DNA of 64,000 nt, from the NCBI RefSeq assembly GCF_965641715.1, contig NZ_OZ282454.1; one strand, 5' to 3'. Below the pieces are notes generated by a model. That model searched no databases, had not been told where the DNA came from, and was given only the letters and a program-made list of their open reading frames with translations. Below are positions 1,971 through 57,985 of this stretch, in pieces. Position numbers and translations under genes: made by a program. Every line of letters begins with the position of its first letter. Positions within the stretch are counted from its first letter, which is position 1. The DNA is from Escherichia coli (GTDB lineage Bacteria > Pseudomonadota > Gammaproteobacteria > Enterobacterales > Enterobacteriaceae).

Positions 1971-3779
1971 TTACTGTCCTGCCTGTTTCAGCTGGTCAGC
2001 AATCTGCTCTTTCACTTTCTGCGTCAGAACACCACTGTCCGGGATTTTCTGGTTATTCATCAGGTCTTCGTAGAAGTTAGTGAAATCCAGTCTGTCGAAC
2101 TGAATTTTCTGCAGCTCATCAACCGTAATCCCCCGACAGTCAGGATGTTTCGCACTGCCAAAACTGATACGCAGCTGTCCGTTGCGCCCCTGCTGCTGGA
2201 CTATCTGCGCCAGCTTCGAATCAAACTGACAGTAACTGCGTTTTTTCTCCAGGCAGACACCCAGCACTTTCTTCGAACAGAACTCTCCGACACTGACGGT
2301 CAGTTTGTTTGATTTTGCTTTAGCCAGGGCCTTTTCATCACTGCTGCATTTGGCCAGCCCGATATCCTGTCCCCAGCCGCTGTCCTTACAGCAGTTGCTG
2401 TATCCGGCTGCAGCCTTCTTACAAAATTTCGCCTGACCGGTGAAAGCACGGACATCCACCCCGTTCAGCGCCGCAACATCCTTACCTGCTGCGGCCAGTG
2501 CCGCCAGCTGAGAAACGGCTTCGGCAAAATCATTACTCTGCCCGCTCTGAGCCTTATCACATTCGCCATCGAGACAGAAGACGTCTCCCCCACAGACCAT
2601 CACTTTCCCGGATGTTTTTGACTCACAGGAGTAGGTGGCATATTCATGCAGACAGGCACCTTCTTCGGAGTAAAAGGCGCACTGGTGTGACACCAGGGTA
2701 CAGGCAGGATTGTCGGTGTAGGTCTGACAGGTTCCCTTGTCTGCTGACTGCGTGACATACGTGTCCCGGTATGCCCAGCAGCTCTGGTACATGCTGTATG
2801 ACTGACCATCTTTCACCAGCGTCCTGTTCTCGCCAGCCTCCGTACATTCTGTTTTTGTCAGTTTCCCCAGCTCCTTGCTGAACGGGCAGCTTTCAGACCA
2901 GACAACATACGGGGTGTACGAGGCTTTTTTTACCCTGACAACCAGACGCAGCTTCATTGCCGTATGACGTCTGAATTTTGTATTCCCGACCCGGACGGGG
3001 TGAGATGACGTAAAAGCAACACCGGCAGTCAGTGTTTTCTGTACTGGTGTAAATGAGGCATCTGCTGAGTATTTGGCATTCCAGCTCAGTGGGGTTCCCA
3101 GTACTGTAATTGTCATAGGTACACTCTTCTGCAGGTAAGTACGACTCCAGCTGTAATGCGCATCGACAATTTCACCGGTAACGGGAGAGGTAATGGAGAC
3201 AACATACTGACCATTCACTTCACGTGCAGGTAGCTGACTCATTTCATACTCCAGCGTCCGGGTTTCCCATGTGGTACTCCCCTGCAGCTCCATACGGGCA
3301 GTTCGTGTGCAGTACTGCTCCACCTGTAAATCCCTCTCACAGGAGTAATTCGTGTATTCACTCCGGCTAATCTCCTGCGCACTGCACTGCTGCCCGGTGT
3401 TTCCCACAATGCTGTCAGCCCGGTTCACCACATCCCTGCCGGTCTGGATAAACGGTGCATCCGGTGAAAGAATGTCTTTCGGCTTGTTCATGAATGACTC
3501 TGTGATGGTTTTTCCGGTTTCACCGGTCGCCCATTCCGTGGTGCCGTCATTTTTCAGGCCACCATCCCCGCCGGCAGTCACGCCACCGTAATATTTTGTC
3601 TCGTCCGGATTCGCGTTATAGCCGGGGATACTCTCCTGTGGCTTAAAGCCCTGAATACTGCTGCTTCCCTGTCCTTTGATCTGGTGAGCAAAATCAGAGC
3701 CGGCCCGGTAATCACTGTTGCTGTCAGCCTGTGCCATGCCGGCAACCAGAGCCAGTATCAGAGGTAAAATACGTTTCAT
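1971..3779 (-). CDS. traN: TraN mating-pair stabilization outer-membrane protein
   Basis: 602 aa Cys-rich ORF with signal peptide; length and position match F TraN. Confidence 0.92.
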   Translation of the reverse strand: MKRILPLILALVAGMAQADSNSDYRAGSDFAHQIKGQGSSSIQGFKPQESIPGYNANPDETKYYGGVTAGGDGGLKNDGTTEWATGETGKTITESFMNKPKDILSPDAPFIQTGRDVVNRADSIVGNTGQQCSAQEISRSEYTNYSCERDLQVEQYCTRTARMELQGSTTWETRTLEYEMSQLPAREVNGQYVVSITSPVTGEIVDAHYSWSRTYLQKSVPMTITVLGTPLSWNAKYSADASFTPVQKTLTAGVAFTSSHPVRVGNTKFRRHTAMKLRLVVRVKKASYTPYVVWSESCPFSKELGKLTKTECTEAGENRTLVKDGQSYSMYQSCWAYRDTYVTQSADKGTCQTYTDNPACTLVSHQCAFYSEEGACLHEYATYSCESKTSGKVMVCGGDVFCLDGECDKAQSGQSNDFAEAVSQLAALAAAGKDVAALNGVDVRAFTGQAKFCKKAAAGYSNCCKDSGWGQDIGLAKCSSDEKALAKAKSNKLTVSVGEFCSKKVLGVCLEKKRSYCQFDSKLAQIVQQQGRNGQLRISFGSAKHPDCRGITVDELQKIQFDRLDFTNFYEDLMNNQKIPDSGVLTQKVKEQIADQLKQAGQ

Positions 3780-30120: not shown

Positions 30121-31459
30121 CATAAGCGCTAACTTAAGGGTTGAACCATCTGAAGAATGCGACGCCTCGGTGCCTCGTTAAGACGATGCCTCGCGTTCTT
30201 CAATTGCGTTTTGTAGGCTGTCAGGGATACTGTCCCACGAATGGCCACCTGTAAGCTCCAGATGACCATTTTTGTTATTCTCCACAACGAGTTAGTTCTT
30301 CTTTTCGGATCCGGCACTTCTGGGGGGGAAATCCAGCGATGGCTGGATTATGTCGTCAATTAAAAATGCGGCGAGTAGATTAGCAAATATCCACGCTTTC
30401 GCGAGTTCAGGTTCCTTTGCACGCAAAGCATCCAGGTGCAGCAAACTTTTGAGCCGCTTAAAAGCCAGTTCAATTTGCCATCGCAGACGGTAACAATCAG
30501 CCACTTGCTCTGCTGAATATTCATCTTCCGGTAATGATGTTAGCAATAGCACATGGCCCGCTGCTTCCAGCGTTTCCGCCTGAACTACTCGTCCTTTTCG
30601 ACGATTCTCGCTGAGCAGTCGGGTTTTACTGATTAATGCTTTTTCGGGAGGAAGTGATACGGCAATGAGACGTGCCGGAAAGGGAGCTCCGGCTTTTTTA
30701 TTACCTGAATTGCCTATCATTACAGTGGTTTCACCGTTCTTACCGCAATCCAGCCCGCGCAGAAAACCCATCATGTCAAAGCGCATTCCTTCTGCAGTTA
30801 ACCAGCGCAATCCTCGCCAGTGAACCCGGACGATATAATCAGCTTCTCCAAAAGCAAGTGAGCGGATACATTCGGGACGCGAACCGAATCCCCGGTCAGC
30901 AATGCGTATCTCGTCTGCCGTTTGCGCAAATCGGTCCAGCCGTTCAGCGTCTCTGCTGTCGGTTAGCTCAAAATCAGTGAACTGACAGGTATGAGGATCA
31001 TATCCCATATGTAGTCGCCATTCAGCGCTGCCGCCCCCGGGCGCACTGATTGCTGTTCCATCGACAAGACGCAATCTCTTTCCGCTTGTACAACCCGTAA
31101 CTGCGGCGCGTACAGCAAGTGTTTGTGCGGCAAGTATGCCAAACCAGTCGGCGGCATTCCGCAGCCGCTTCAGGAGAGCCACGTCAGATAATGTTGCAAC
31201 GTCATGGAGCTGAGCCCATGCAGTGACTTCACGTAATGACATCCCCCCGGGGCCGTAAGCCAGCCCCAGACGTAGCAGAGTTGCAGCATCACGAATTTCG
31301 CGGCGGCGGGTTAGAGCCCCGGCATTACGTGCCGAAGTATCCAGTTCTTCGGGCTTACCAATATGGGCCAGAATTGCTGACCAGTTATCGTGAGAGTAAT
31401 TCATCGGCACGTTAAATCATATCAGGCGTAATACCACAACCCTTAAGTTAGCGCTTATG
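30121..31459 (-). mobile_element. IS186 (IS4 family), complete, with target-site duplication
   Basis: 1339 bp; terminal inverted repeats CATAAGCGCTAACTTAAGGGTTG (30121-30143) and CAACCCTTAAGTTAGCGCTTATG (31437-31459); flanking direct repeat GGATTCTCCC(C). Confidence 0.9.
30292..31410 (-). CDS. IS186 transposase
   Basis: 372 aa ORF matching recalled IS186 transposase (MNYSHDNWSAILAHIGKPEELDTSARNAGALTRRREIRDAATLLRLGLAYGPGGMSLREV...). Confidence 0.92.
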   Translation of the reverse strand: MPMNYSHDNWSAILAHIGKPEELDTSARNAGALTRRREIRDAATLLRLGLAYGPGGMSLREVTAWAQLHDVATLSDVALLKRLRNAADWFGILAAQTLAVRAAVTGCTSGKRLRLVDGTAISAPGGGSAEWRLHMGYDPHTCQFTDFELTDSRDAERLDRFAQTADEIRIADRGFGSRPECIRSLAFGEADYIVRVHWRGLRWLTAEGMRFDMMGFLRGLDCGKNGETTVMIGNSGNKKAGAPFPARLIAVSLPPEKALISKTRLLSENRRKGRVVQAETLEAAGHVLLLTSLPEDEYSAEQVADCYRLRWQIELAFKRLKSLLHLDALRAKEPELAKAWIFANLLAAFLIDDIIQPSLDFPPRSAGSEKKN

Positions 31460-33699: not shown

Positions 33700-35200
33700 T
33701 CGCTGACCTGAGCCTTATTCTCCTTACGGACTTTATATCCCGGCTGTTATTCAGATTTATCAGGTCACGGTCTTACCTGTCGTTGTCATCACTCGGGCCG
33801 CCAGAGCAACCTTTCAGCATTCACCCTTTTGTTAAGAGTTCATTATTTATCGGTATCAGCGATTAATATGGTCTGATACTGACATGGTTCCTGTCATACT
33901 TACGGTCATGGGCAGCTATCGCCCATACTGTTCGTGCCAGCTTGTTTGCCATGGCGACGATAGCCACACTGGCTGGACGACGTTTTTTCAGTTCGGTTAT
34001 CCACGGACCAGGTTCTTTAGTCAGTAATGCTGCCGCCCTTGCGCCATGAATAAACAGGGTTCGCAGATATGTATCACCACGTTTGCTTATCCCCAGCAGG
34101 CGAATTTTCCCTCCTGAGCCAGTCTGTTTGGGCACCAGACCAACATAAGCCGCGAACTCTCGCCCTGATTTAAACGCTGATGCTTCCCCCATGGTGGCCA
34201 CCGCTGCCGTCGCAATAAGTGGCCCAACACCAGGAATATCCAGCAACCGCTTACAGGTCTCATTCTGTTTCGCCACGCTGGCAAGCTGTTTTTCGATGTC
34301 TTCTATCAGGGAGTCCAGCTCATTCAACCGCTTATACTGGTTTTTCAGTACCGTGATGAGATACGGTGGCAGTCTCTCTTTCATTCGTTCCAGTGCTTCA
34401 GGGAACTCCCGCTCCATTGCTGCCCGACCTTTGTGGATGGTTTCACCAAACTCCAGTAACGTCCCGTGTAGGGCGTTAATTTGTGCGATCCGGAACTTCA
34501 CCAGTTGCATGCGGGTACGGTGCAGAACCAGTACCGACTGCTGTTCTTCTGTTTTGACGGCAATTTCTTTACCGGGCTGCTGAACCGCCATCCAGATAGC
34601 CCGGGCATCCATCACGTCGTTCTTGTTTCCCATGACGAATGCCTTAACGAAGCGGGCCTGTAACAAGCGGACGTTATGCCCCAGCTTTGTCAGCTCCCGT
34701 GCCCAGTGCTGAGAGCCTCCACAGGCCTCCATACCAATCAGGCAGGGTTCCCGGTTGCTGAAATATTCAAGAAAATCTCTGCCACGAAGTTGCTTATCCA
34801 CCACTTCACCTGTGTTCTCATCAATGAAGTGAACCTGAATCAGATGTTTTGCGATATCAACGCCAACCGGTGTATATTTCATTTGTGGAGTCTCCAGTCT
34901 GAGGGAACTTTATGCATCCCGTATTGGGCACAATGATGCCGGAAATCTGCGAGGCTCCACACCTCTCTGATTTCCCCCTTTATTCATCACTGTGCTCCGG
35001 ATTTAATGTTGGGGGATGCGTTCATCTCATTCTCCTTCTCTTACAGAAGACACCGGGAGGGCCCCCCTGTGGTGCCCGTTCCCCGCTGCCTGTGGGTTGT
35101 TCACCGCGTCCGGTAACGGGTCAGGCCGACCGTGGAATATCGCAGCCGTCGTCTTTTTGACGGCGAGAATATGCCGTGAAAGCGGCTTGAAGGGCGTTCA
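33700..35200 (-). mobile_element. IS110-family element (boundaries approximate, not determined)
   Basis: transposase gene plus non-coding flanks; this family lacks clear terminal inverted repeats so ends cannot be fixed by eye. Confidence 0.3.
33863..34882 (-). CDS. IS110-family transposase/recombinase
   Basis: 339 aa; MEACGGS...NKND.MDA (DEDD N-terminal) and LLDIPGVGPLIA...GLVPKQ.GSGGK...GISKRGD C-terminal motifs. Confidence 0.85.
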   Translation of the reverse strand: MKYTPVGVDIAKHLIQVHFIDENTGEVVDKQLRGRDFLEYFSNREPCLIGMEACGGSQHWARELTKLGHNVRLLQARFVKAFVMGNKNDVMDARAIWMAVQQPGKEIAVKTEEQQSVLVLHRTRMQLVKFRIAQINALHGTLLEFGETIHKGRAAMEREFPEALERMKERLPPYLITVLKNQYKRLNELDSLIEDIEKQLASVAKQNETCKRLLDIPGVGPLIATAAVATMGEASAFKSGREFAAYVGLVPKQTGSGGKIRLLGISKRGDTYLRTLFIHGARAAALLTKEPGPWITELKKRRPASVAIVAMANKLARTVWAIAAHDRKYDRNHVSIRPY

Positions 35201-35408
35201 TCAGAAAAGGGCGACAGGCTGGCGTACACTGTCACCGACGCCAGCCGGAAGTGGTAAAGGCGCCCGTCCCGTGCCCGCCGGACGCGGGACACTGACCACA
35301 GGCAGCGTTTATGCCGCGCCGCGTCAGCCGGCGCAGTAAAAAGAGGAGCACGGCGACATCCTTTACCGGAAAAGAAACGGGCGGTTGCCCGCCCGTCTCC
35401 GTCATACT

Positions 35409-36035
35409 TCATCCGCCATAATGCACCACATTGTCGACTATCCACGCAGGTCCGGTGACTTCCGGCAGCTCATCGTCATCTGTCGGGGAAGACCATTCCA
35501 GTTCCCCCCACAGCACATCAACGAGCTCTCCGCGCTCATACAACTGCCAGCCACAGAAATCACAGCCCTGTTCGGCATACCAGTGCTCCAGCGTGCAGCT
35601 GAAACGGCGGCTTAATTCTGCAATAACGTCGCTTTCCGGCTGACACCACGGAGTGTCGAAATCAACCTGAATGAAGTTGTCTCCCTGACTACTGATATTC
35701 ACCTCATACCCCACAGGCCACTTCACGCCATACCGTTCCGTATACCAGTGATATGCAGAAGGAACACCGTTCAGAACACCACCGTTAAAGCCATTCACTT
35801 CAACATCCAGGCGGGTCGGCAGAACCGTCAGCAGGTCAAACGGCATGGTATTTTCCGGCAGTACGTTGTCACACAGACGGTTCCACCACACCGATACATC
35901 CTCGTTACTCCAGAAGCCACACCAGTCACCTCTTTTTGCGGTGAAAAGTGCGGTGATGGTATCCCTGACATCGTCCGGTAATCCTTCCCAGCGACGCTGT
36001 CCAGTACCGCTCTGCAGCCAGAGTTCATGCAGCAT
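35409..36035 (-). CDS. hypothetical acidic Trp/Cys-rich protein
   Basis: ORF 35409-36302; start placed at internal Met (MLHELW...) because upstream part overlaps umuD-like remnant on opposite strand; hairpin terminator after stop. Confidence 0.4.
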   Translation of the reverse strand: MLHELWLQSGTGQRRWEGLPDDVRDTITALFTAKRGDWCGFWSNEDVSVWWNRLCDNVLPENTMPFDLLTVLPTRLDVEVNGFNGGVLNGVPSAYHWYTERYGVKWPVGYEVNISSQGDNFIQVDFDTPWCQPESDVIAELSRRFSCTLEHWYAEQGCDFCGWQLYERGELVDVLWGELEWSSPTDDDELPEVTGPAWIVDNVVHYGG

Positions 36036-36094
36036 CAGGCAGTTTTGCTCATCCAGCAGTACACCGTCCTGCACAGCCAGCGGTGAATCGATGA

Positions 36095-36336
36095 ACCAGG
36101 CTGGCGTGCAGAATGGTGATCTGCTGGTAGTGGACAGGGCCGAAAAACCACAACACGGGGACATCGTTATCGCTGAGATCGACGGGGAGTTCACCGTCAA
36201 ACGACAGCTGTTGCGCCCACGCCCGGCACTGGAGCCGGTTTCAGACAGCCCGGAGTTCCGCACACTGTATCCGGAAAACATCTGTATTTTTGGTGTTGTC
36301 ACTCACGTGATACACAGGACGCGGGAGTTATGCTGA
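36095..36336 (+). pseudogene. UmuD/MucA-like (S24 peptidase) gene, 5'-truncated
   Basis: C-terminal part ...SGESM...GDLLVVDRA...HGDIVIAEIDGEFTVKRL...FGVVTHVIH matches UmuD'; N-terminal region absent. Confidence 0.6.
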
Positions 36337-37576
36337 TGTTTGCACTGGCTGATATCAACAGTTTCTACGCCTCATGTGAAAAAGTTTTCCGCCCGGACCT
36401 TCGCAACGAACCGGTCATCGTACTCAGCAATAACGATGGCTGTGTGATCGCGCGCAGCCCGGAGGCAAAAGCTCTTGGCATCAGAATGGGGCAGCCCTGG
36501 TTTCAGGTCAGACAAATGCACCTGGAGAAGAAAATACATGTATTTTCCAGCAATTATGCACTGTACCACAGCATGAGCCAACGGGTTATGGCTGTTCTGG
36601 AGTCGCTTTCTCCCGCAGTTGAGCCCTACTCAATTGATAAAATGTTCATTGATTTGCGGGGGGTGAACCGTTGCATCTCTCCGGAGGTTTTGGTCATCAG
36701 CTCAGGGAACAAGTAAAGAGCTGGACAGGACTCGCCATGGGGGTGGGCATTGCGCCTACAAAAACGCTGGCCAAAAGTGCACAGTGGGCAACAAAGCAAT
36801 GGCCACAGTTTTCCGGTGTGGTCGCGCTGACGGCAGAAAACCGTAATCGAACCTTCAAGTTACTGGGGCTGCAGCCTGTTGGTGAAGTCTGGGGAGTAGG
36901 ACGCAGACTGACGGAAAAGCTGAATGCGCAGGGTATTAACACAGCGCTGCAGCTGGCGCAGGCTAACACGGCATTCATCCGGAAAAACTTCAGCGTCATT
37001 CTTGAGCATACAGTACGCGAACTCAACGGCGAGTCCTGCATATCTCCGGAAGAAGCCCCACCGGCAAAACAGCAGATTGTCTGTAGTCGCAGTTTTGGTG
37101 AACGAATCACAGACAAAGATGCCATGCACCAGGCTGTTGTTCAGTATGCAGAGCGGGCCGCAGAGAAACTACGTGGGGAGCGTCAGTATTGCCGGCAGGT
37201 GGCGACATTTATACGAACGTCACCCTTTGCAGTGAAAGCCCCCTGTTACAGCAATTCCGCTGTGGAAAAGCTTCCATTGCCTACACAGGACAGCCGGGAC
37301 ATTATTGCCGCAGCATGCAGAGCGTTAAACCATGTCTGGCGTGAAGGGTACCGCTATATGAAGGCAGGAGTCATGCTGGCTGATTTCACACCATCGGGTA
37401 TAGCGCAGCCGGGATTATTTGATGAAATCCAGCCCCATAAAAACAGCGAAAAGTTAATGAAAACACTCGATGAACTGAACCAGTCGGGAAAAGGGAAAGT
37501 GTGGTTTGCGGGGCGAGGAACCGCCCCTGAATGGCAAATGAAACGGGAAATGTTGAGTCAGTGTTATATGTATTAG
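36330..37576 (+). pseudogene. UmuC/MucB-like Y-family polymerase gene, frameshifted at T4 run 36688-36691 and 3'-truncated by IS
   Basis: ORF 36330-36716 (LADINSFYASCE...) and ORF 36671-37576 are consecutive parts in different frames; C-terminus ends inside IS481-family left end. Confidence 0.8.
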
Positions 37577-38769
37577 TCGCGACTTGATCTGACACATGAC
37601 CTTGAAAGGTTGAGAGTTACCGGTTTTGATATGGGTGTCGAATCCTTATACAAAACACGAGGTAACTCTCATGCTTCATACTACCAATCCCGTCATCAAA
37701 CACAAAGCCGGTTTGCTCAATCTGGCTGAAGAACTCAGCAATGTATCAAAAGCCTGTAAAATCATGGGCGTTTCGCGTGATACATTTTATCGCTATCGCG
37801 AACTGGCCGATGAAGGCGGTGTGGATGCGCTGGTTAATCGTAGTCGCCGCGCCCCTAACCTTAAGAACCGTACCGATGAGCTAACTGAGCAGGCCGTTGT
37901 CGATTATGCCGTCGCTTTCCCGGCGCACGGTCAGCACCGGACCAGCAACGAGCTGCGCAAACAGGGCGTTTTTATCTCAGGAAGTGGTGTCCGTTCTGTC
38001 TGGCTGCGCCACAATCTTGAAAACTTCAAAAAGCGTCTGAAAGCACTGGAAGAAAAAGTGGCTCGTGATGGCATTGAACTGACCGACAGCCAAATAGCCG
38101 CGCTGGAACGTAAAGCCAGCGATGACGAGGCTTGTGGTGAAATTGAAACCGCCCATCCAGGTTATCTGGGTTCACAGGACACATTCTATGTCGGCAATCT
38201 GAAAGGTGTCGGGCGTATTTATCAGCAAACATTCGTTGATACCTACTCGAAGGTTGCTCATTGCAAGCTGTATGTCACCAAAACACCGATTACTGCGGCT
38301 GATTTACTGAATGATCGTGTGCTGCCGTTTTATGCGTCTCAGGGCCTGCCAGTGCTCAGAATACTGACAGACAGAGGCACAGAATATTGTGGCAAAGTGG
38401 AGCAGCATGATTACCAGCTTTATCTGGCAATAAATGACATCGACCACACAAAAACTAAAGCGATGTCACCGCAGACGAATGGTATCTGCGAACGGTTCCA
38501 CAGGACGATATTGCAGGAATTTTATCAGGTCGCGTTCCGCAAAAAGCTGTATGGCGAACTCGACACATTACAGTCGGATCTTGATGAATGGCTGGCTCAC
38601 TATAATAATGAGCGAACCCATCAGGGGAAAATGTGCTGTGGCCGGACGCCAATGGAAACGTTACTTGATGGAAAGCACATCTGGGCTGAGAAAAATTTAA
38701 GCCAGATGTAATCTGACAGATACCTGTATAAATAACCGGTAACTGTCAGATCAGGTCTGAGCTAATACA
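37569..38769 (+). mobile_element. IS481-family insertion sequence, copy 1 (ends plus/minus about 10 bp)
   Basis: ends TGTATTAGTCGCGAC...GAGCTAATACA; one DDE transposase ORF; identical copy inverted at 48591-49790. Confidence 0.75.
37626..38711 (+). CDS. IS481-family DDE transposase
   Basis: 361 aa; N-terminal HTH; integrase core with SPQTNGICERFHRTILQEF. Confidence 0.85.
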   Translation: MIWVSNPYTKHEVTLMLHTTNPVIKHKAGLLNLAEELSNVSKACKIMGVSRDTFYRYRELADEGGVDALVNRSRRAPNLKNRTDELTEQAVVDYAVAFPAHGQHRTSNELRKQGVFISGSGVRSVWLRHNLENFKKRLKALEEKVARDGIELTDSQIAALERKASDDEACGEIETAHPGYLGSQDTFYVGNLKGVGRIYQQTFVDTYSKVAHCKLYVTKTPITAADLLNDRVLPFYASQGLPVLRILTDRGTEYCGKVEQHDYQLYLAINDIDHTKTKAMSPQTNGICERFHRTILQEFYQVAFRKKLYGELDTLQSDLDEWLAHYNNERTHQGKMCCGRTPMETLLDGKHIWAEKNLSQM

Positions 38770-39016
38770 ATTTATCAGCCGATTTACACGCCATAGGTGA
38801 ATCATGTTGAACGACTATGGCTGTTACTTCACAACACAATAACGCGTAATCATCAGTGCTGCTCAATGTGGCAACTGTTGAAAGATGTTCGCCATTTTAT
38901 AGAAACCGTCAGCCCATTCTCCGGAGGCAAACATGGGCTGGCGAAAGTGTAGTGGTATTAGGCACAGCTACTGAGTACGGATTTAACTTCGTATTGGATT
39001 TTATTGCCTCTGTTTA

Positions 39017-39718
39017 TTATAAGTACATCTGTAATTTATAAATCTCACTAAGCTTTACAGACGGATAATAATAACCTTGCCCCCCCCACAGACTTACATC
39101 TCTAATTTTATCCAGAATATATTGTGATTCAATTCCCTCAGCTATTACTTTTGAACAATGAGTTGAAATGCGCTTTATAATTTCACTGAAGTATTCTTTA
39201 TTAAGCGTTCTATAAAGAAAGTCTTTATCAAGCTTAACCGCCCCAACATCTTGTAATTGAGATATATTTATTTTACAGTTGTCAGCACCAAAATCATCGA
39301 CCCATATATGATTTGTAATATTTAGTAGCTTATTAACAATAATTCTACTATTTTCATGAAAATACGGAAATGTTTCTGATATTTCAAGAGCAATGAAGTC
39401 ATTCTCAATTATAGTTTTCTGAAGTTCCTTACAGTTAAAGATAAAAATGCAAGTATCATAATCAATATTAATTGAGCAAATTAAATCATTTTTGATAAAA
39501 AATGATTTTTGTTCAGCTATGGATTTTATTTGTTGCTGTAGTATATTTATCTTCATTGCTGAAGATAACCTCAGAAATGTATGTTGTGTTGATAATTGCT
39601 CGCCGCTTTGTGTATAAAAGCGACTTAGTACTTCAACAGCAACTAACTTGTTGTTTTTTATATCAACAATTGGCTCAACAATAAAATAAACACCCAAAAT
39701 ACAGCTCCAGTTTATCAT
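39017..39718 (-). CDS. EAL-domain protein (c-di-GMP phosphodiesterase-like, possibly degenerate)
   Basis: 233 aa, AT-rich; EVL in place of EAL, DDFGADN, KLDKDFL, EGIES. Confidence 0.65.
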   Translation of the reverse strand: MINWSCILGVYFIVEPIVDIKNNKLVAVEVLSRFYTQSGEQLSTQHTFLRLSSAMKINILQQQIKSIAEQKSFFIKNDLICSINIDYDTCIFIFNCKELQKTIIENDFIALEISETFPYFHENSRIIVNKLLNITNHIWVDDFGADNCKINISQLQDVGAVKLDKDFLYRTLNKEYFSEIIKRISTHCSKVIAEGIESQYILDKIRDVSLWGGQGYYYPSVKLSEIYKLQMYL

Positions 39719-40776
39719 ATGCTCTCATGAAATACAGTCGACTGTATTTCATGAGTATGTGGTAGTGTTTGCTACGATTAGCATCACCATCTAAAGTGAT
39801 AATGCGTGATAAATAAAATATAAACCACATAAAAAAAACATCAATCATCACAATATAAATTAAATATTTTTAATTTAAAAATGATGTAATGACTATAGAT
39901 GACATTTGCTCACGACGCACTTATATAGCAAAATAAATTTGCTGAGTCACATATGTTACCCTTCTTTTTAGATCTAACCCTTGCTGGCTAAGGATATATA
40001 TTTAAAAACCGCACTTTTTTTAGTGCTCAGTTTTTAAATACTGAGTGGATATCCTGTCGCTCTATTTTTGAAGATTAATTGATCTTATTATCCCCACATC
40101 AAGAATAAAAAGCAATAACAAAACTGAACATTATGTGAACTCCCAAGGGTTTTGCCCCTCTTGTCCGATACGGCATGATGTAACATATCGAGAAAATACT
40201 CTATTCTTATCTGTACAAAACTTTGAGTGAAGAGCGGGAAATCACGGAGAAGTAGTTATCAAAATATAATACTGGGGGAATACTAACCGAACCATTATTT
40301 AGGCAGGATAACAAAAAATGCATGGGACGATACTTGACGAACAGGCATGGAGGGGTTCCTGTGTAATTGATTCCACAAATTATTAGATCAATAAGCTCTA
40401 TGCCTACCCCCCCCATTACAGGGATTCCTCAGCACAGCTGTAAGTTCGGACTATGGGTAAAAAAGATACCCGTCAGGTAACGAGCTAACGCATTAATCAT
40501 CAGATGAGCGAAGTATCGTTTATTGTAAGTATGACCGCCACCAGAATGAATATTCAGCCTGTAACGCATTCTGGCGAATAGTCGGCTTCGATACAGTAAA
40601 CGACTCATTTGATAACGATCTTTATCAATAACTCAATTTTATGAGGTAAAAAAAACAGCACCGTATCTGCTATTACAGAATGAAGAACATTAAATAAACC
40701 TGAGTTATTATCCAACGCGGAAAACCGCCAGTGCTGTAAAATTACCAATAAAACAACCAGCAAGTCACGATTCTTT

Positions 40777-41163
40777 TTATTTCTTATATTTTGACAACAT
40801 TAAAAAATTAATTATTAGCTTATTATGCGCCCCCTCTCTATCGACGTAGCACCCTCTGCACCAGAACTCCCTGTTCCTGTATTTGAATTTCAAATCCCCA
40901 AACTGCTCGTAAAGCATCCGACTGCTTTTCCCTTTCAGATATCCCATAAAGCCGGATACGCTCATTTTGGGCGGGCTCTCCACAAGCATATGGATATGAT
41001 CTACGCAGCATACAGTTTCCATAATCCGTACACTTTTCCACTCACACAGCTTTCTCAAAATACTGCCTATTGCTCTACGCCTCTCTCTGTAGAATACCTG
41101 TCTTCGGTATATTGGCGCAAAAACGATGTGATATTTACAGTTCCATTGGGTGTGCGTCCCCAT
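40777..41163 (-). CDS. IS200/IS605-family TnpA-like (Y1 transposase), possibly degenerate
   Basis: WNCKYHIVFAPIYRRQ...CCVDHIHMLVESPPKMSVSGFMGYLKGKSS...; C-terminus diverges. Confidence 0.6.
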   Translation of the reverse strand: MGTHTQWNCKYHIVFAPIYRRQVFYRERRRAIGSILRKLCEWKSVRIMETVCCVDHIHMLVESPPKMSVSGFMGYLKGKSSRMLYEQFGDLKFKYRNREFWCRGCYVDREGAHNKLIINFLMLSKYKK

Positions 41164-42567
41164 TGCCCCCCCCCCCTTCCTTTTGATTTCTTGTCTGACA
41201 CTTGCAGTTGCCAGACCGCAGGGTGTTTTAACAAATCAAAAGTTTTTTTCTGTGCACAAAAAAAAACCGCCATGCCAGGCGGTTTGAAGCATAAGAATAC
41301 ACATTTTATACTTTGAGGTGTCGGGTGCCTCCCGAAATACCCGCCCAAAGACAGATATTGTGATTCCCCCGCTAAACCACTATATAAACCACCCTCGCAC
41401 TGAGGAACACCTCTGTAGTGTTATTCACAACACAGAAATGCCACATCACCGACACTACCAGAAACAGGAGAATTCCACCAATAATGCAGCATTCCTGTAT
41501 TGTGAAATATTAATACTGCAACTATACCTGACTTGGTATCATAGTAAGATACACTTGTTATCCCGTCTGTCGACATGAAATAAAAAAGCATTACTACATC
41601 TTTACAACTTTTAAGGTTGATACTACCGATGGTTCATATTAAATCAAAAATATAATTAGTTATAATGTGTTAACATATGTATATATTTGTATCAGACATG
41701 TGCATTTTATTCCTCCTTCTACTGCTCTCGCATTGGATTTTGCAAAAAACACCATGAACATGAACCATTTGGGATTGCACTCATTCAATTCTCGCAATGA
41801 CAGAAGAGTCACTTCGGGTTAACCGGTATATTGAAATGCCATCAGAGAATATATTTTAAAAAAGAGATAGGCTTGAATATATGATTAACACAAGTTCTAA
41901 TTTTGAGATGTTCTTTGCTATGCTGGTACTCTGTTAGCGCCCCCTCAGGGAAAAATCGTTTTTATTCGGCAGAACATGGAGTCCGGCATCCACGTGTTCC
42001 ATGTGGCTCAGGTTTATGGTATTTGCCCCCCCCCCGTTGTTTAAATATCAGGAAGGAAATCCTATTGCTGTTGCCGCAGGTGAAGATGTCGTTCCTTCTT
42101 CAACTCTATAAAACAAATAAAAGAGTTACAGCCCATGATGAGCAAAAAAATGGCTAGTGAGATCTTCTCAAAGAATCAGTGGAGTACGCTTTGTCGCAAA
42201 AATGAATAGCACCGCCCTAGTTGCCAACGGACATTGAATAAACCCTAGTAAGCCGTATTCTGGGCGTGTAGCGCACACAACAAGTATAACGAATGAAAAT
42301 CTTGGTAAGAAGACAAATAAATGGTTCGTAAATGCAAAGCGCGTTTATAGAATAAAAGTATGCGAGCGTACGCCTATAGTCACGTTACTTTATAGAAAAG
42401 GTATCTGGGCAGAAAAAATCTGAACCAGATTTGAGACGGTACATAGATTTGTGTAATTGCCTGATTTTGATATGTTCAATCCAGCATCAAATGAAGGTTA
42501 ATTTATGACGAAAAACAGTTACAGGCTCTGGCTAACTAACTGGCCAAAAACCTCAATCCCCTTGAAG

Positions 42568-43300
<733 letters not shown>

Positions 43301-43549
43301 TCATGTTGGCGCGCGAATTGCGTCAGATTAAAAAAAAGGATAACGTCAGACCTCATCTTTTCAGAAAAAGATATCTTTTAGTCGCCACGACACAAGAAAA
43401 AAAACTATTATTATTAAGAATGTGTTTTGATTGTTACTATGGGTAAATAGTATTATCCAGAAAATTACCAACATATATTAAACATTTTTTTAAGATTTTA
43501 TTATATTATTTTCTGGTTATCTTGGATATTACATTATATAGGAGGGATT

Positions 43550-55113: not shown

Positions 55114-55614
55114 CACCGTTATATGTATTAGTCGCGACTTGATCTGACACATGGCCTTGAAAGGTTGAGAGTTACCGGTTTTGATATGGGTGTCGAATCC
55201 TTATACAAAACACGAGGTAACTCTCATGCTTCATACTACCAATCCCGTCATCAAACACAAAGCCGGTTTGCTCAATCTGGCTGAAGAACTCAGCAATGTA
55301 TCAAAAGCCTGTAAAATCATGGGCGTTTCGCGTGATACATTTTATCGCTATCGCGAACTGGCCGATGAAGGCGGTGTGGATGCGCTGGTTAATCGTAGTC
55401 GCCGCGCCCCTAACCTTAAGAACCGTACCGATGAGCTAACTGAGCAGGCCGTTGTCGATTATGCCGTCGCTTTCCCGGCGCACGGTCAGCACCGGACCAG
55501 CAACGAGCTGCGCAAACAGGGCGTTTTTATCTCAGGAAGTGGTGTCCGTTCTGTCTGGCTGCGCCACAATCTTGAAAACTTCAAAAAGCGTCTGAAAGCA
55601 CTGGAAGAAAAAGT
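55114..55614 (+). mobile_element. IS481-family element, copy 3, 3'-truncated by IS66
   Basis: identical to first 500 bp of copy 1; transposase ORF 55181-55618 cut after ...KALEEKV. Confidence 0.75.
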
Positions 55615-55651
55615 GTAAGCGTACAGCGAGGGCCGTATTGACGGGGATGTG

Positions 55652-57190
55652 TTATTCAGCTGGCAGTGCTATGCGCCACGGAAGCAGTTCGCTGACCCGG
55701 TTGACCGGCCAGTCTGCTATGACGCCAAGCACATGGCGAAGGTAGCTTTCTGGATCCACGTCATTCAGTTTGCACGTCCCGATCAGGCTGTACAGTAGCG
55801 CTCCCCGCTCACCACCATGGTCAGAGCCGAAGAACAGGAAGTTTTTACGACCCAGACTGACCGCCCGCAGGGCATTTTCAGCGATGTTGTTGTCGATTTC
55901 CACCCAGCCATCGTTCGCATAGTACGTCAGTGCCGGCCACTGGTTAAGTGCGTACGCGAACGCCTTCGCCAACTCTGAGTGTCGCGACAGGGTCTTCATC
56001 TTTTCACGCAACCAGCTTTCCAGGGATTTCAACAGCGGTTTCGTTTTTCGCTGACGTTCAGCAAGCCTCTGCTCTGCCGGCATTCCCCTTATATCCGCCT
56101 CTATGGCGTACAACTGACCGATCTGCTCCAGGGCTTCTTCCGTCAGTGCTGACGGGATGCGGACGTGCACATCGTGGATCTTTCGGCGGGCATGAGCCCA
56201 GCAGACAGCTTCCGTTATCCCACCATTGCGATACAGCTCGTTGAACCCGGCGTACGCATCCGCTTGCAGCACACCGCTGAAGCAAGCAAGATGAGTCTGC
56301 GGATGGATGCCTTTTCTGTCCGGGCTGTAAGCGAACCACACTGCAGGTGCCAACGCTGACCCAGCATTGCGGTCATCACGAACATACGCCCACAACCGCC
56401 CGGTCTTCGTCTTCTTATTACCCGGCAGCAGTACCTGGACCGGGGTATCATCGGCATGGAGTTTGCCGTCAGTCATGACATAGCCATGAAGCGCCTCTTC
56501 CAGCGGAGACAGCAGCCGGCAGCATGCATCCACCCAGCCCGACAGCAGTGAACGGCTCAGCTCCACACCTTGCCGGCCGTATATTTCTGACTGGCGATAC
56601 AGCGGGGTGTGCTCTGCATACTTCGAGGTCAGCACGCGGGCCAGCAGCCCCGGTCCGGCGATACCCCGCTCGATGGGCCGCGAAGGTGCAGGTGCCTGCA
56701 CGATGGCATCGCACTGAGTACAGGCATGTTTTTCCCGTACCGTCCGGATAACCCGAAAGGCGCTACGCATCAACTCCAGCTGTTCGGCGGTATCCTCGCC
56801 CAGATAGCTCAGTGAACCGCCGCAGTTCGGGCAGCACGGCGCCGCAGGCAACAGTCGCTTTTCGTCACGGGGTAGTGATTCAGGGAACGGCTTACGGGTG
56901 CGGGTCTGAGGCAACGGACGCTGTACAGCCGGGTCATACACCCTACCAGTCAGCGTATCGCTCTCTTTCTGAAGCCGGTTCAGATCGGCTTCCATTTGTG
57001 CGATACGGCGGGAGACTTTTTCGGAACGACTGCCGAAGTTCATCCGGCGGAGTTTATCCAGCTGCGCCTGCAGATGGTCTATTTCGCGCTCCCGGTTGCT
57101 CAGCTTTTCCTGCAGGGCGTGGATCAGCGCCTCCTGTTCGGCCAGGCGCTGTTTCAGCAGGAAGATGTCGTCAGAAGAGATGTCGTTCAT
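55652..57190 (-). CDS. IS66-family transposase TnpC
   Basis: 512 aa; leucine zipper, CPNCGG zinc-finger-like motif, DDE core. Confidence 0.9.
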
Positions 57191-57239: not shown

Positions 57240-57587
57240 TTACAGCATGGTCAGGGAGGTCAGCAGCCGCTTGGGCTGTCGCCAGTCGATACCTTCCAGC
57301 AGCATCGCCAGCTGCGCCTGCGTAAGGAACACTTTGCCATCACGGGCTGACGGCCAGGCGAAGCGCCCACGCTCCAGCCGTTTGGTCAGGAGGCACAGTC
57401 CGTCACCGGTGGACCACAGCAGTTTAACCTGACTGCCGCTGCGGCCCCGGAAAATGAAAACATGGCCGGACATGGGATCGTCTTTCAGCGCCGTTTGTAC
57501 TTTCGCAGCCAGGCCGTTGAAGCCATTTCTCATATCGGTGATACCGGCAACCAGCCAAATTTTGGTCCCGGAAGGTAACGGGATCAT
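57240..57587 (-). CDS. IS66-family TnpB (orf2)
   Basis: 115 aa ([31 protein letters not shown]...). Confidence 0.88.
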
Positions 57588-57985
57588 CGCTTCAGTTCCT
57601 GTATCAGCAGAGTCAGGAGCTTTTCGCTGACATTGCCATTGAAGCGGAGCGTCCCGTGCCGGAACGTTACCTCACAGCTGATACTGAGGGTTTCCGGGTC
57701 CTCTGCGAGCGATTCTGGCTGTTCGGCAGCTGCATCGAGAGTCACAGGAAGTAGCTGGGGGCTCTCTGAAGAAGGTAATAGCAGCTTTCCCTCGCGCCAT
57801 TGTTGTCGCCATTTGAACAACAGATTGGCGTTAATGCCATTTTCAAGAGCAAGTTTTGAGATGGATATCCCGGGTTCACAGGAGGCAGCAACGAGCAGCT
57901 GTTTAAATTCGGGAGGATAATTAGGGCAGCCTTTTCGCCTGCCGGGAGTCACATTTTTCTGCATATCTGACACTTTGGTTCCCAC
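57584..57985 (-). CDS. IS66-family TnpA (orf1, HTH)
   Basis: 133 aa, overlaps tnpB start. Confidence 0.85.
   Translation of the reverse strand: MGTKVSDMQKNVTPGRRKGCPNYPPEFKQLLVAASCEPGISISKLALENGINANLLFKWRQQWREGKLLLPSSESPQLLPVTLDAAAEQPESLAEDPETLSISCEVTFRHGTLRFNGNVSEKLLTLLIQELKR

Follow-up and report, generated by a model that had tools for sequence, protein, structure and literature searches.

The plasmid operon impCAB encodes the DinI-like protein ImpC, the UmuD-like protein ImpA and the UmuC-like Y-family polymerase ImpB. The operon was reportedly first described from the IncI1 plasmid TP110, and its carriers among IncI1 or I-complex plasmids include TP110, R64, ColIb-P9, pTF2 and pMS7163B. 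SOS induction of impCAB is driven by two LexA boxes, published for pTF2 (PMC12211044), while over-expression of the operon leads to a severe growth defect (PMC10286972).

Here, a locus of this kind was considered in a 64,000-nucleotide stretch of Escherichia coli DNA (contig NZ_OZ282454.1), hereafter termed the window. The DNA comes from an F-type conjugative plasmid of porcine E. coli, which encodes AIDA-I as well. An earlier note, made from the sequence alone, had described a decayed umuDC-like mutagenesis operon at this position, a description that base-by-base comparison with intact plasmid impCAB loci has borne out. Very probably, the locus represents the non-functional remains of SOS-inducible, plasmid-borne impCAB within the leading region of this conjugative virulence plasmid.

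Identity and layout of the locus

The region spanning positions 36076-37568 shares 97-98% nucleotide identity with impA-impB of the impCAB operon found in IncI1 and some IncF plasmids. As judged by this identity, the locus is a remnant of the plasmid impCAB operon, rather than of chromosomal umuDC. A megablast search of complete E. coli genomes and of PLSDB plasmids revealed that thousands of plasmids carry impCAB-type DNA. Those compared with the window include the IncI1 plasmid NZ_CP122770.1 (L002), CP057372.1 (L003; pRHB28-C15_2) and the Escherichia albertii IncF plasmid pEA36_2 (L004; NZ_CP117592.1). The features of the locus are as follows.

35409-36073, minus strand: 3' part of the DUF1281 gene, which in intact plasmids lies beside impC in divergent orientation; the 5' end of the gene is gone with the deletion listed next
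36069-36083, unstranded: deletion junction; ~1075 bp (about 1.07 kb) are absent relative to L002 4675-5752
36076-36336, plus strand: impA (umuD-like) remnant, codons 60-145 and the stop codon, corresponding to 86 residues of the 145-residue ImpA
36336-36716, plus strand: impB (umuC-like) 5' segment, codons 1-118, followed by eight out-of-frame codons and a TAA stop (36714-36716); Pfam IMS, E = 2.6e-30
36639-36641, plus strand: impB codon 102, AAA (Lys) as opposed to GAA, due to G>A at 36639
36688-36691, plus strand: T4 run in impB, T5 in the references; the 1-nt deletion shifts the frame
36692-37568, plus strand: impB 3' segment in the shifted frame, codons 119-411; Pfam IMS_C and DUF4113
37569-38769, plus strand: IS481-family element, copy 1, 1201 bp, interrupting impB; 346-residue transposase at 37671-38711
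48591-49791, minus strand: IS481-family element, copy 2, inverted relative to copy 1
55124-55615: IS481-family element, partial copy 3, comprising the first 492 bp and cut off by an IS66-family element

In intact copies, as annotated in L002 and pEA36_2, a DUF1281 gene on the minus strand is followed by the divergent DinI-like gene, umuD and umuC, and then by stbB/parM. In the window, this synteny is conserved on the left side, where the DUF1281 gene is found, while the right-hand neighbour has been moved off by IS recombination. Indeed, blastn and tblastn searches of the window did not detect stbB/parM, which in plasmid pPE041_2 (NZ_JBXSFL010000003.1) adjoins the impB tail. The left flank, comprising DUF1281, a DNA methylase gene, ardA, psiB and ssb, corresponds to a plasmid leading region. 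The window belongs to an F-type conjugative plasmid and encodes a TraC_F_IV protein and ParB, in addition to the leading-region genes ssb, psiB and ardA and the aah-aidA pair encoding AIDA-I.

The DUF1281 fragment matches Pfam DUF1281 at positions 63-177 of 177, together with DUF1281_C, and so retains the C-terminal 220 codons (35412-36071); it is 98.8% identical to L002 4001-4674. In the identical plasmid copy, PGAP labels this gene 'incomplete, missing N-terminus'.

Other insertions were seen in the same flank. An IS110-family transposase gene (33863-34882, minus strand) lies between the DNA methylase and DUF1281 genes; it is also present in pPE041_2 and missing from the IncI1 reference, and the adjacent DNA methylase gene contains an internal stop according to PGAP in pPE041_2. 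Further into the leading region, positions 30122-31458 hold an IS4-family element of 1337 bp with IS421/IS186-like ends (CATAAGCGCTAACTTAAGGG) and a 372-residue transposase, missing from the otherwise 99.9% identical pPE041_2.

The frameshift in impB

The start codon of impB overlaps the impA stop codon as ATGA. A switch of frame in the umuC-like gene at the T4 run had been noted earlier, together with the expectation that T5 would restore a continuous UmuC-like protein, and both points were upheld. The run is T5 in L002, in pEA36_2 and in the close relative pRHB28-C15_2, which bears a frameshift of its own elsewhere, versus T4 in the window. Once one T is restored, a continuous ImpB is obtained that scores 758 bits against NCBIfam PRK03609 (UmuC; cut-off 431), covering positions 1-411 of 422. 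The domains of UmuC are recognized in the two ImpB halves, namely the palm-fingers domain (Pfam IMS, 105.7 bits) in the first and the little-finger domain (IMS_C, 88.2 bits) and the UmuC-specific C-terminal domain (DUF4113, 51.5 bits) in the second. As it stands, impB is not a single reading frame of ~424 codons, given the 1-nt deletion and the removal of codons 412-424 by the IS.

It had also been suggested that the T4 run could be a sequencing error, in which case impB would be continuous up to the IS. The change does sit in a homopolymer. Yet the same T4 is found in three other assemblies from two countries, namely pPE041_2, from E. coli PEC41 isolated from a pig in Korea, and CP055625 and CP057088, both from UK pig farms. 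Identity with pPE041_2 is 100% over 3370 nt, and with the two UK records 100% over the impB segment; PGAP marks the pPE041_2 copy of umuC as 'frameshifted'. With four concordant assemblies of the same lineage originating from different laboratories and countries, an artefact is unlikely. Moreover, a run of four to five T residues is short for systematic error, and pRHB28-C15_2, from the same UK study, reads T5, showing the pipeline there to be able to call T5. Among 1714 RefSeq E. coli records containing this stretch, the exact 103-mer of the window occurs only in pPE041_2.

The same T5 to T4 change was also seen in an unrelated IncI1 plasmid, NZ_CP024152.1 (55114-55175), on an E102 background. 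The T run may thus be prone to repeated frameshifting, or the NZ_CP024152.1 record may be wrong; with the allele background being different, recurrent error and recurrent mutation are equally plausible. Taken together, a miscalled homopolymer in the window is judged very unlikely. The question is in any case moot because other lesions remain: the proposal that T5 would make umuC intact apart from its IS-truncated end does not hold, since an operon with T5 would still carry Lys102 and the IS, and would still lack a promoter, impC and a usable impA.

Replacement of a catalytic residue of ImpB

At codon 102 of impB, the SIDE motif reads SIDK, such that the invariant, metal-binding catalytic glutamate is replaced by lysine. 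UmuC D101 and E102 are active-site residues, equivalent to D105 and E106 of Dpo4 (PMC4374754). The position can be equated with UmuC E102 because the UmuC model aligns 1-411 to 1-411 with no offset and, in a phmmer alignment, Lys102 sits under the invariant glutamate of 'sidEay' in solved Pol IV chains. ImpB of the window thus keeps D6 and D101 yet presents an incomplete catalytic carboxylate triad (D6, D101 and E102 in UmuC; D7, D105 and E106 in Dpo4), and is predicted to be catalytically dead.

The K102 allele is rare, with an exact 61-mer being found in only four of 2295 plasmid records (pEA36_2, CP055625, CP057088 and CP057372). It is restricted to a small group of IncF plasmids, among which pEA36_2 has the only K102 form of impB that is still a full-length ORF. 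It is conceivable, though very unlikely, that K102 was selected as a dead, non-mutagenic ImpB, serving for example in a checkpoint or RecA-modulating role or relieving impCAB toxicity. Were this so, the window would present the later fate of the K102 allele, not merely that of a neutral first hit.

The IS481-family element and the displaced impB tail

Homology to impB stops at position 37568, inside codon 412 of 424 and 41 nt (13 codons and the stop) short of the reference end, with the IS beginning at 37569. This agrees with the earlier description of the last umuC-like codons running into the left end of an IS481-family element. Past 37568, the impB frame continues for two IS-encoded codons before a TAG at 37574-37576. 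The element has 26-bp imperfect inverted repeats, matching at 21 of 26 positions and starting TGTATTAG, and its transposase scores 289 bits against NCBIfam transpos_IS481 (NF033577; cut-off 224). A DDE transposase, terminal repeats that begin with TGT and a short target-site duplication are all as expected of the IS481 family.

The frame that follows the IS (from 38770, 'LSADLHAIG') was considered as a continuation of impB and rejected, as the reference tail reads TTKWRDIPLARLG; the DNA to the right of IS copy 1 belongs instead to the side of the EAL-domain gene. Searches by blastn and tblastn did not detect the impB tail and stbAB elsewhere in the window; the tail was located in pPE041_2, beside another IS.

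In the window, the flanks of copies 1 and 2 mismatch within each copy and match between copies, with ATTTATC forming the right flank of copy 1 and the left flank of copy 2. In pPE041_2, one IS copy is bordered by ATTTATC at either end. At the copy adjoining impB, the left flank is TGTTATA and the right flank TATCAGA (the 3' end of aidA). The left and right flanks of a third copy are TATCAGA and TGTTATA-CAACTAAATGG, respectively, the latter corresponding to the impB tail followed by stbB/parM. From the pPE041_2 copies, three 7-bp duplications, ATTTATC, TGTTATA and TATCAGA, could be rebuilt, the copy of TGTTATA at impB lying at 37562-37568. The flank pattern in pPE041_2 therefore points to 7-bp target duplications, ordinary transposition into impB and later IS-IS recombination that swapped flanks; the three scattered duplications can be taken as the record of successive recombinations of this kind.

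The right flank of the IS at impB is the aidA 3' end in pPE041_2 and the EAL-gene side in the window. It follows that the segment between the two inverted IS copies (38770-48590) is inverted relative to pPE041_2.

The TTATA preceding the IS was also considered as part of the element, an option rejected in view of the 7-bp target duplications and of the AT-rich (TTAT-like) preference.

Additional observations concern the surroundings of the IS copies. The left flank of copy 3 ends in GTTATA, like the insertion site in impB, suggesting a preference for TTAT-like targets. The IS66-family element that interrupts copy 3 is ISEc8-like, with a transposase at 55652-57190 and accessory ORFs at 57240-57985. 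Between the inverted IS copies 1 and 2 lies the AIDA-I module, comprising the EAL-domain gene (39017-39718), aah (43550-44725) and aidA (44725-48588), in an arrangement resembling a composite element.

The impA remnant and the upstream deletion

The umuD-like frame had been described as lacking its N-terminal region and as starting at 36095. The first 59 codons of impA are indeed absent and a truncated umuD-like sequence is present at that position, but the surviving impA homology begins at 36076, ~19 nt earlier. The remnant matches Pfam Peptidase_S24 with 50.4 bits, at profile positions 41-115 of 116 only, and NCBIfam PRK10276 (UmuD) at positions 34-115 of 115 with 79 bits, below the cut-off of 110 because impA is truncated. 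The S24 fold is recognizable, with the dyad of Ser64 (GESM) and Lys101 (FTVKR) being kept. In alignments to solved UmuD and UmuD', ImpA A60 aligns with UmuD A56 and ImpA G29 with residue 1 of UmuD'. As such, the remnant lacks not only a start codon, a ribosome-binding site and the Ala28-Gly29 site of RecA-stimulated self-cleavage (equivalent to UmuD C24-G25) but also residues 1-31 of mature ImpA'.

Alignment of 35400-36073 to L002 4001-4674 and of 36069-37568 to L002 5746-7245 defines the deletion, by which what remains of DUF1281 at its 3' end is fused to codon 60 of impA. Lost were 238 nt from the 5' end of DUF1281, the intergenic region, the whole of impC and impA codons 1-59. Both LexA boxes, at L002 5264 (CTGTGTGTGGATTCAG) and 5291 (CTGTATATGCATACAG) and matching the published pTF2 boxes, fall inside the deleted interval. 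The deleted DNA, impC and the N-termini of ImpC and ImpA were not found anywhere in the window by blastn or tblastn. Likewise, no LexA box was found upstream of the remnant, and no plus-strand sigma-70-like promoter in 35400-37700.

The junction contains a 7-nt microhomology, CCAGCGG, present in both parental sequences, while seven more nucleotides (GGWRTGT) are gone on the DUF1281 side. A one-step microhomology deletion was considered and rejected, as no single-step model fits the junction; the options are the CCAGCGG microhomology with the extra 7-nt loss or a CTGC junction with three changes. The breakpoint was therefore kept as 36069-36083.

An ORF of 126 codons (35956-36336, plus strand) crosses this junction, its first ~40 residues being antisense DUF1281. 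In pPE041_2, PGAP annotates the corresponding sequence as an intact 'S24 family peptidase' (L001 6557-6937; WP_371179065.1). This CDS owes its annotation to the truncation of impA and is an artefact. Formally, a fragment derived from ImpA may be translated from this chimeric ORF.

At the other end of the remnant, C>T at 36331 replaces the final residue of ImpA (R145C) and gives rise to an additional ATG, in frame and two codons before the impB start (ATGCTGATG). This change is common to the window and pRHB28-C15_2, and is not seen in pEA36_2.

The remnant could be supposed to retain a function, either because ribosomes slip by -1 at GGTTTTGG and so restore ImpB, or because the chimeric ImpA fragment is UmuD'-like or dominant-negative towards chromosomal Pol V. 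An open frame of 126-163 codons leads into the ImpA remnant, and the Ser64/Lys101 dyad and C-terminal globular part of ImpA are kept. However, G GTT TTG does not conform to the canonical slippery heptamer, X XXY YYZ, and a T4 run is generally regarded as too short for transcriptional slippage; on such sequence grounds, together with the other lesions, programmed frameshifting at the T run was rejected. A restored ImpB would, moreover, remain K102 and IS-truncated, the ImpA fragment lacks the equivalent of UmuD' residues 25-55, and no promoter-like site precedes either on the plus strand. Finally, related copies bear unrelated and mutually different lesions, a pattern of neutral decay and not of a conserved new function. 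Retained function is accordingly judged very unlikely. Also very unlikely is an origin from chromosomal umuDC or from another plasmid paralogue (mucAB, samAB or rumAB), a reading favoured by the PGAP product names 'umuC/umuD' but opposed by the close identity to a DinI-like/umuD/umuC triplet lying between a DUF1281 gene and stbB/parM in IncI1/IncF plasmids, by the leading-region genes to the left, and by the fact that 1706 of the 1729 matching places in complete E. coli genomes are plasmid-borne.

The impCAB fossil, as predicted from its sequence, is thus an ordinary pseudogene cluster bearing at least five separate inactivating lesions. Given the lack of a recognizable promoter, the missing N-terminus of ImpA and the split, catalytically dead ImpB, we infer that nothing useful is expressed and that no Pol V-like activity is provided by the plasmid.

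Proposed history of the locus

The ancestral layout was that of IncI1 plasmids, with the DUF1281 gene, the divergent impC-impA-impB and then stbB/parM. The most parsimonious order would place E102K before the other lesions, followed by independent neutral decay in each descendant, because K102 is common to three related IncF-borne copies, two of which were examined, each showing different further damage; this order rests on parsimony over four to five sequences and may be confounded by recombination. In the lineage leading to the window, a deletion of ~1.07 kb took away the promoter with both LexA boxes, impC and the first 59 codons of impA, and the T5 run of impB lost one T. The IS481-family element transposed into impB codon 412, duplicating TGTTATA, and homologous recombination among IS copies then parted the body of impB from its last 41 nt and stbAB. 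Such IS recombination also inverted 38770-48590, containing the EAL-domain gene, aah and aidA, relative to pPE041_2. Loss of impCAB may have been favoured because its over-expression is toxic.

The dN/dS ratio of impB versus intact alleles is ~0.18 in all comparisons, with no long-term signal of relaxed selection. This value is what is expected if decay is recent; being uninformative as to recent decay, it is not in itself support for decay. It follows from the ratio that most of the 2-3% divergence would be old allelic variation under selection, with the decay being recent.

Relative to the earlier note, what has been added is the absence of impC and of the regulatory region, the E102K replacement, the clean insertion with a 7-bp duplication and the IS-IS recombination. 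In practical terms, the plasmid should not be counted as bearing a functional error-prone polymerase, and the chimeric 'S24 family peptidase' CDS left by automated annotation is really a pseudogene fragment. The three 7-bp duplications offer a clean record of how the IS481-family element reshuffled the AIDA-I region. Otherwise, this is a routine case, of little consequence, in which an accessory operon for SOS mutagenesis decays on a mosaic virulence plasmid rich in IS elements. Everything found here belongs to well-described families, and PGAP has already flagged the identical locus as a frameshifted umuC pseudogene.

Comparison with known systems

Relative to impCAB of the IncI1 plasmid L002, DNA identity amounts to 97.3% over impA codons 60-145 and impB codons 1-411, and the same divergent DUF1281 neighbour is present within a matching leading-region setting. 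In contrast to L002, the promoter and its two LexA boxes are missing together with impC and the first 59 codons of impA, stbB/parM is gone from this position, and impB contains the T4 frameshift, E102K and the IS481-family interruption.

The closest full-length relative, at 98.1%, is pEA36_2, which shares K102 and most of the lineage-specific substitutions. Its impC, its regulatory region and the 3' end of its impB are all in place and the run is T5, while impA has a nonsense mutation of its own, Y17* (TAC>TAA). In this plasmid, PGAP rescues the Y17* impA as a shorter, GTG-started 'umuD' (2571-3005).

In pRHB28-C15_2, which also comes from the UK pig-farm type of E. coli source, impB is 99.5% identical and encodes K102. 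The run is T5, but a different 1-nt deletion is found in impB (equivalent to 36744); impC and impA were wholly lost at a different junction, whereas stbAB and the 3' end of impB remain intact and no IS is present.

In pPE041_2, the 3370 nt of complete identity take in the remains of DUF1281 and impA, the broken impB and the IS, the right flank of the IS being different.

Finally, the locus resembles chromosomal umuDC, which encodes Pol V, in its two genes with an ATGA overlap, the Ser-Lys dyad of the S24 family and the Y-family fold, and ImpB numbering is the same as that of UmuC (D6, F10, Y11 and D101). It differs from umuDC in being a plasmid-borne paralogue that, in intact copies, is preceded by an extra dinI-like gene and that is here a pseudogene, with E102 replaced by lysine.
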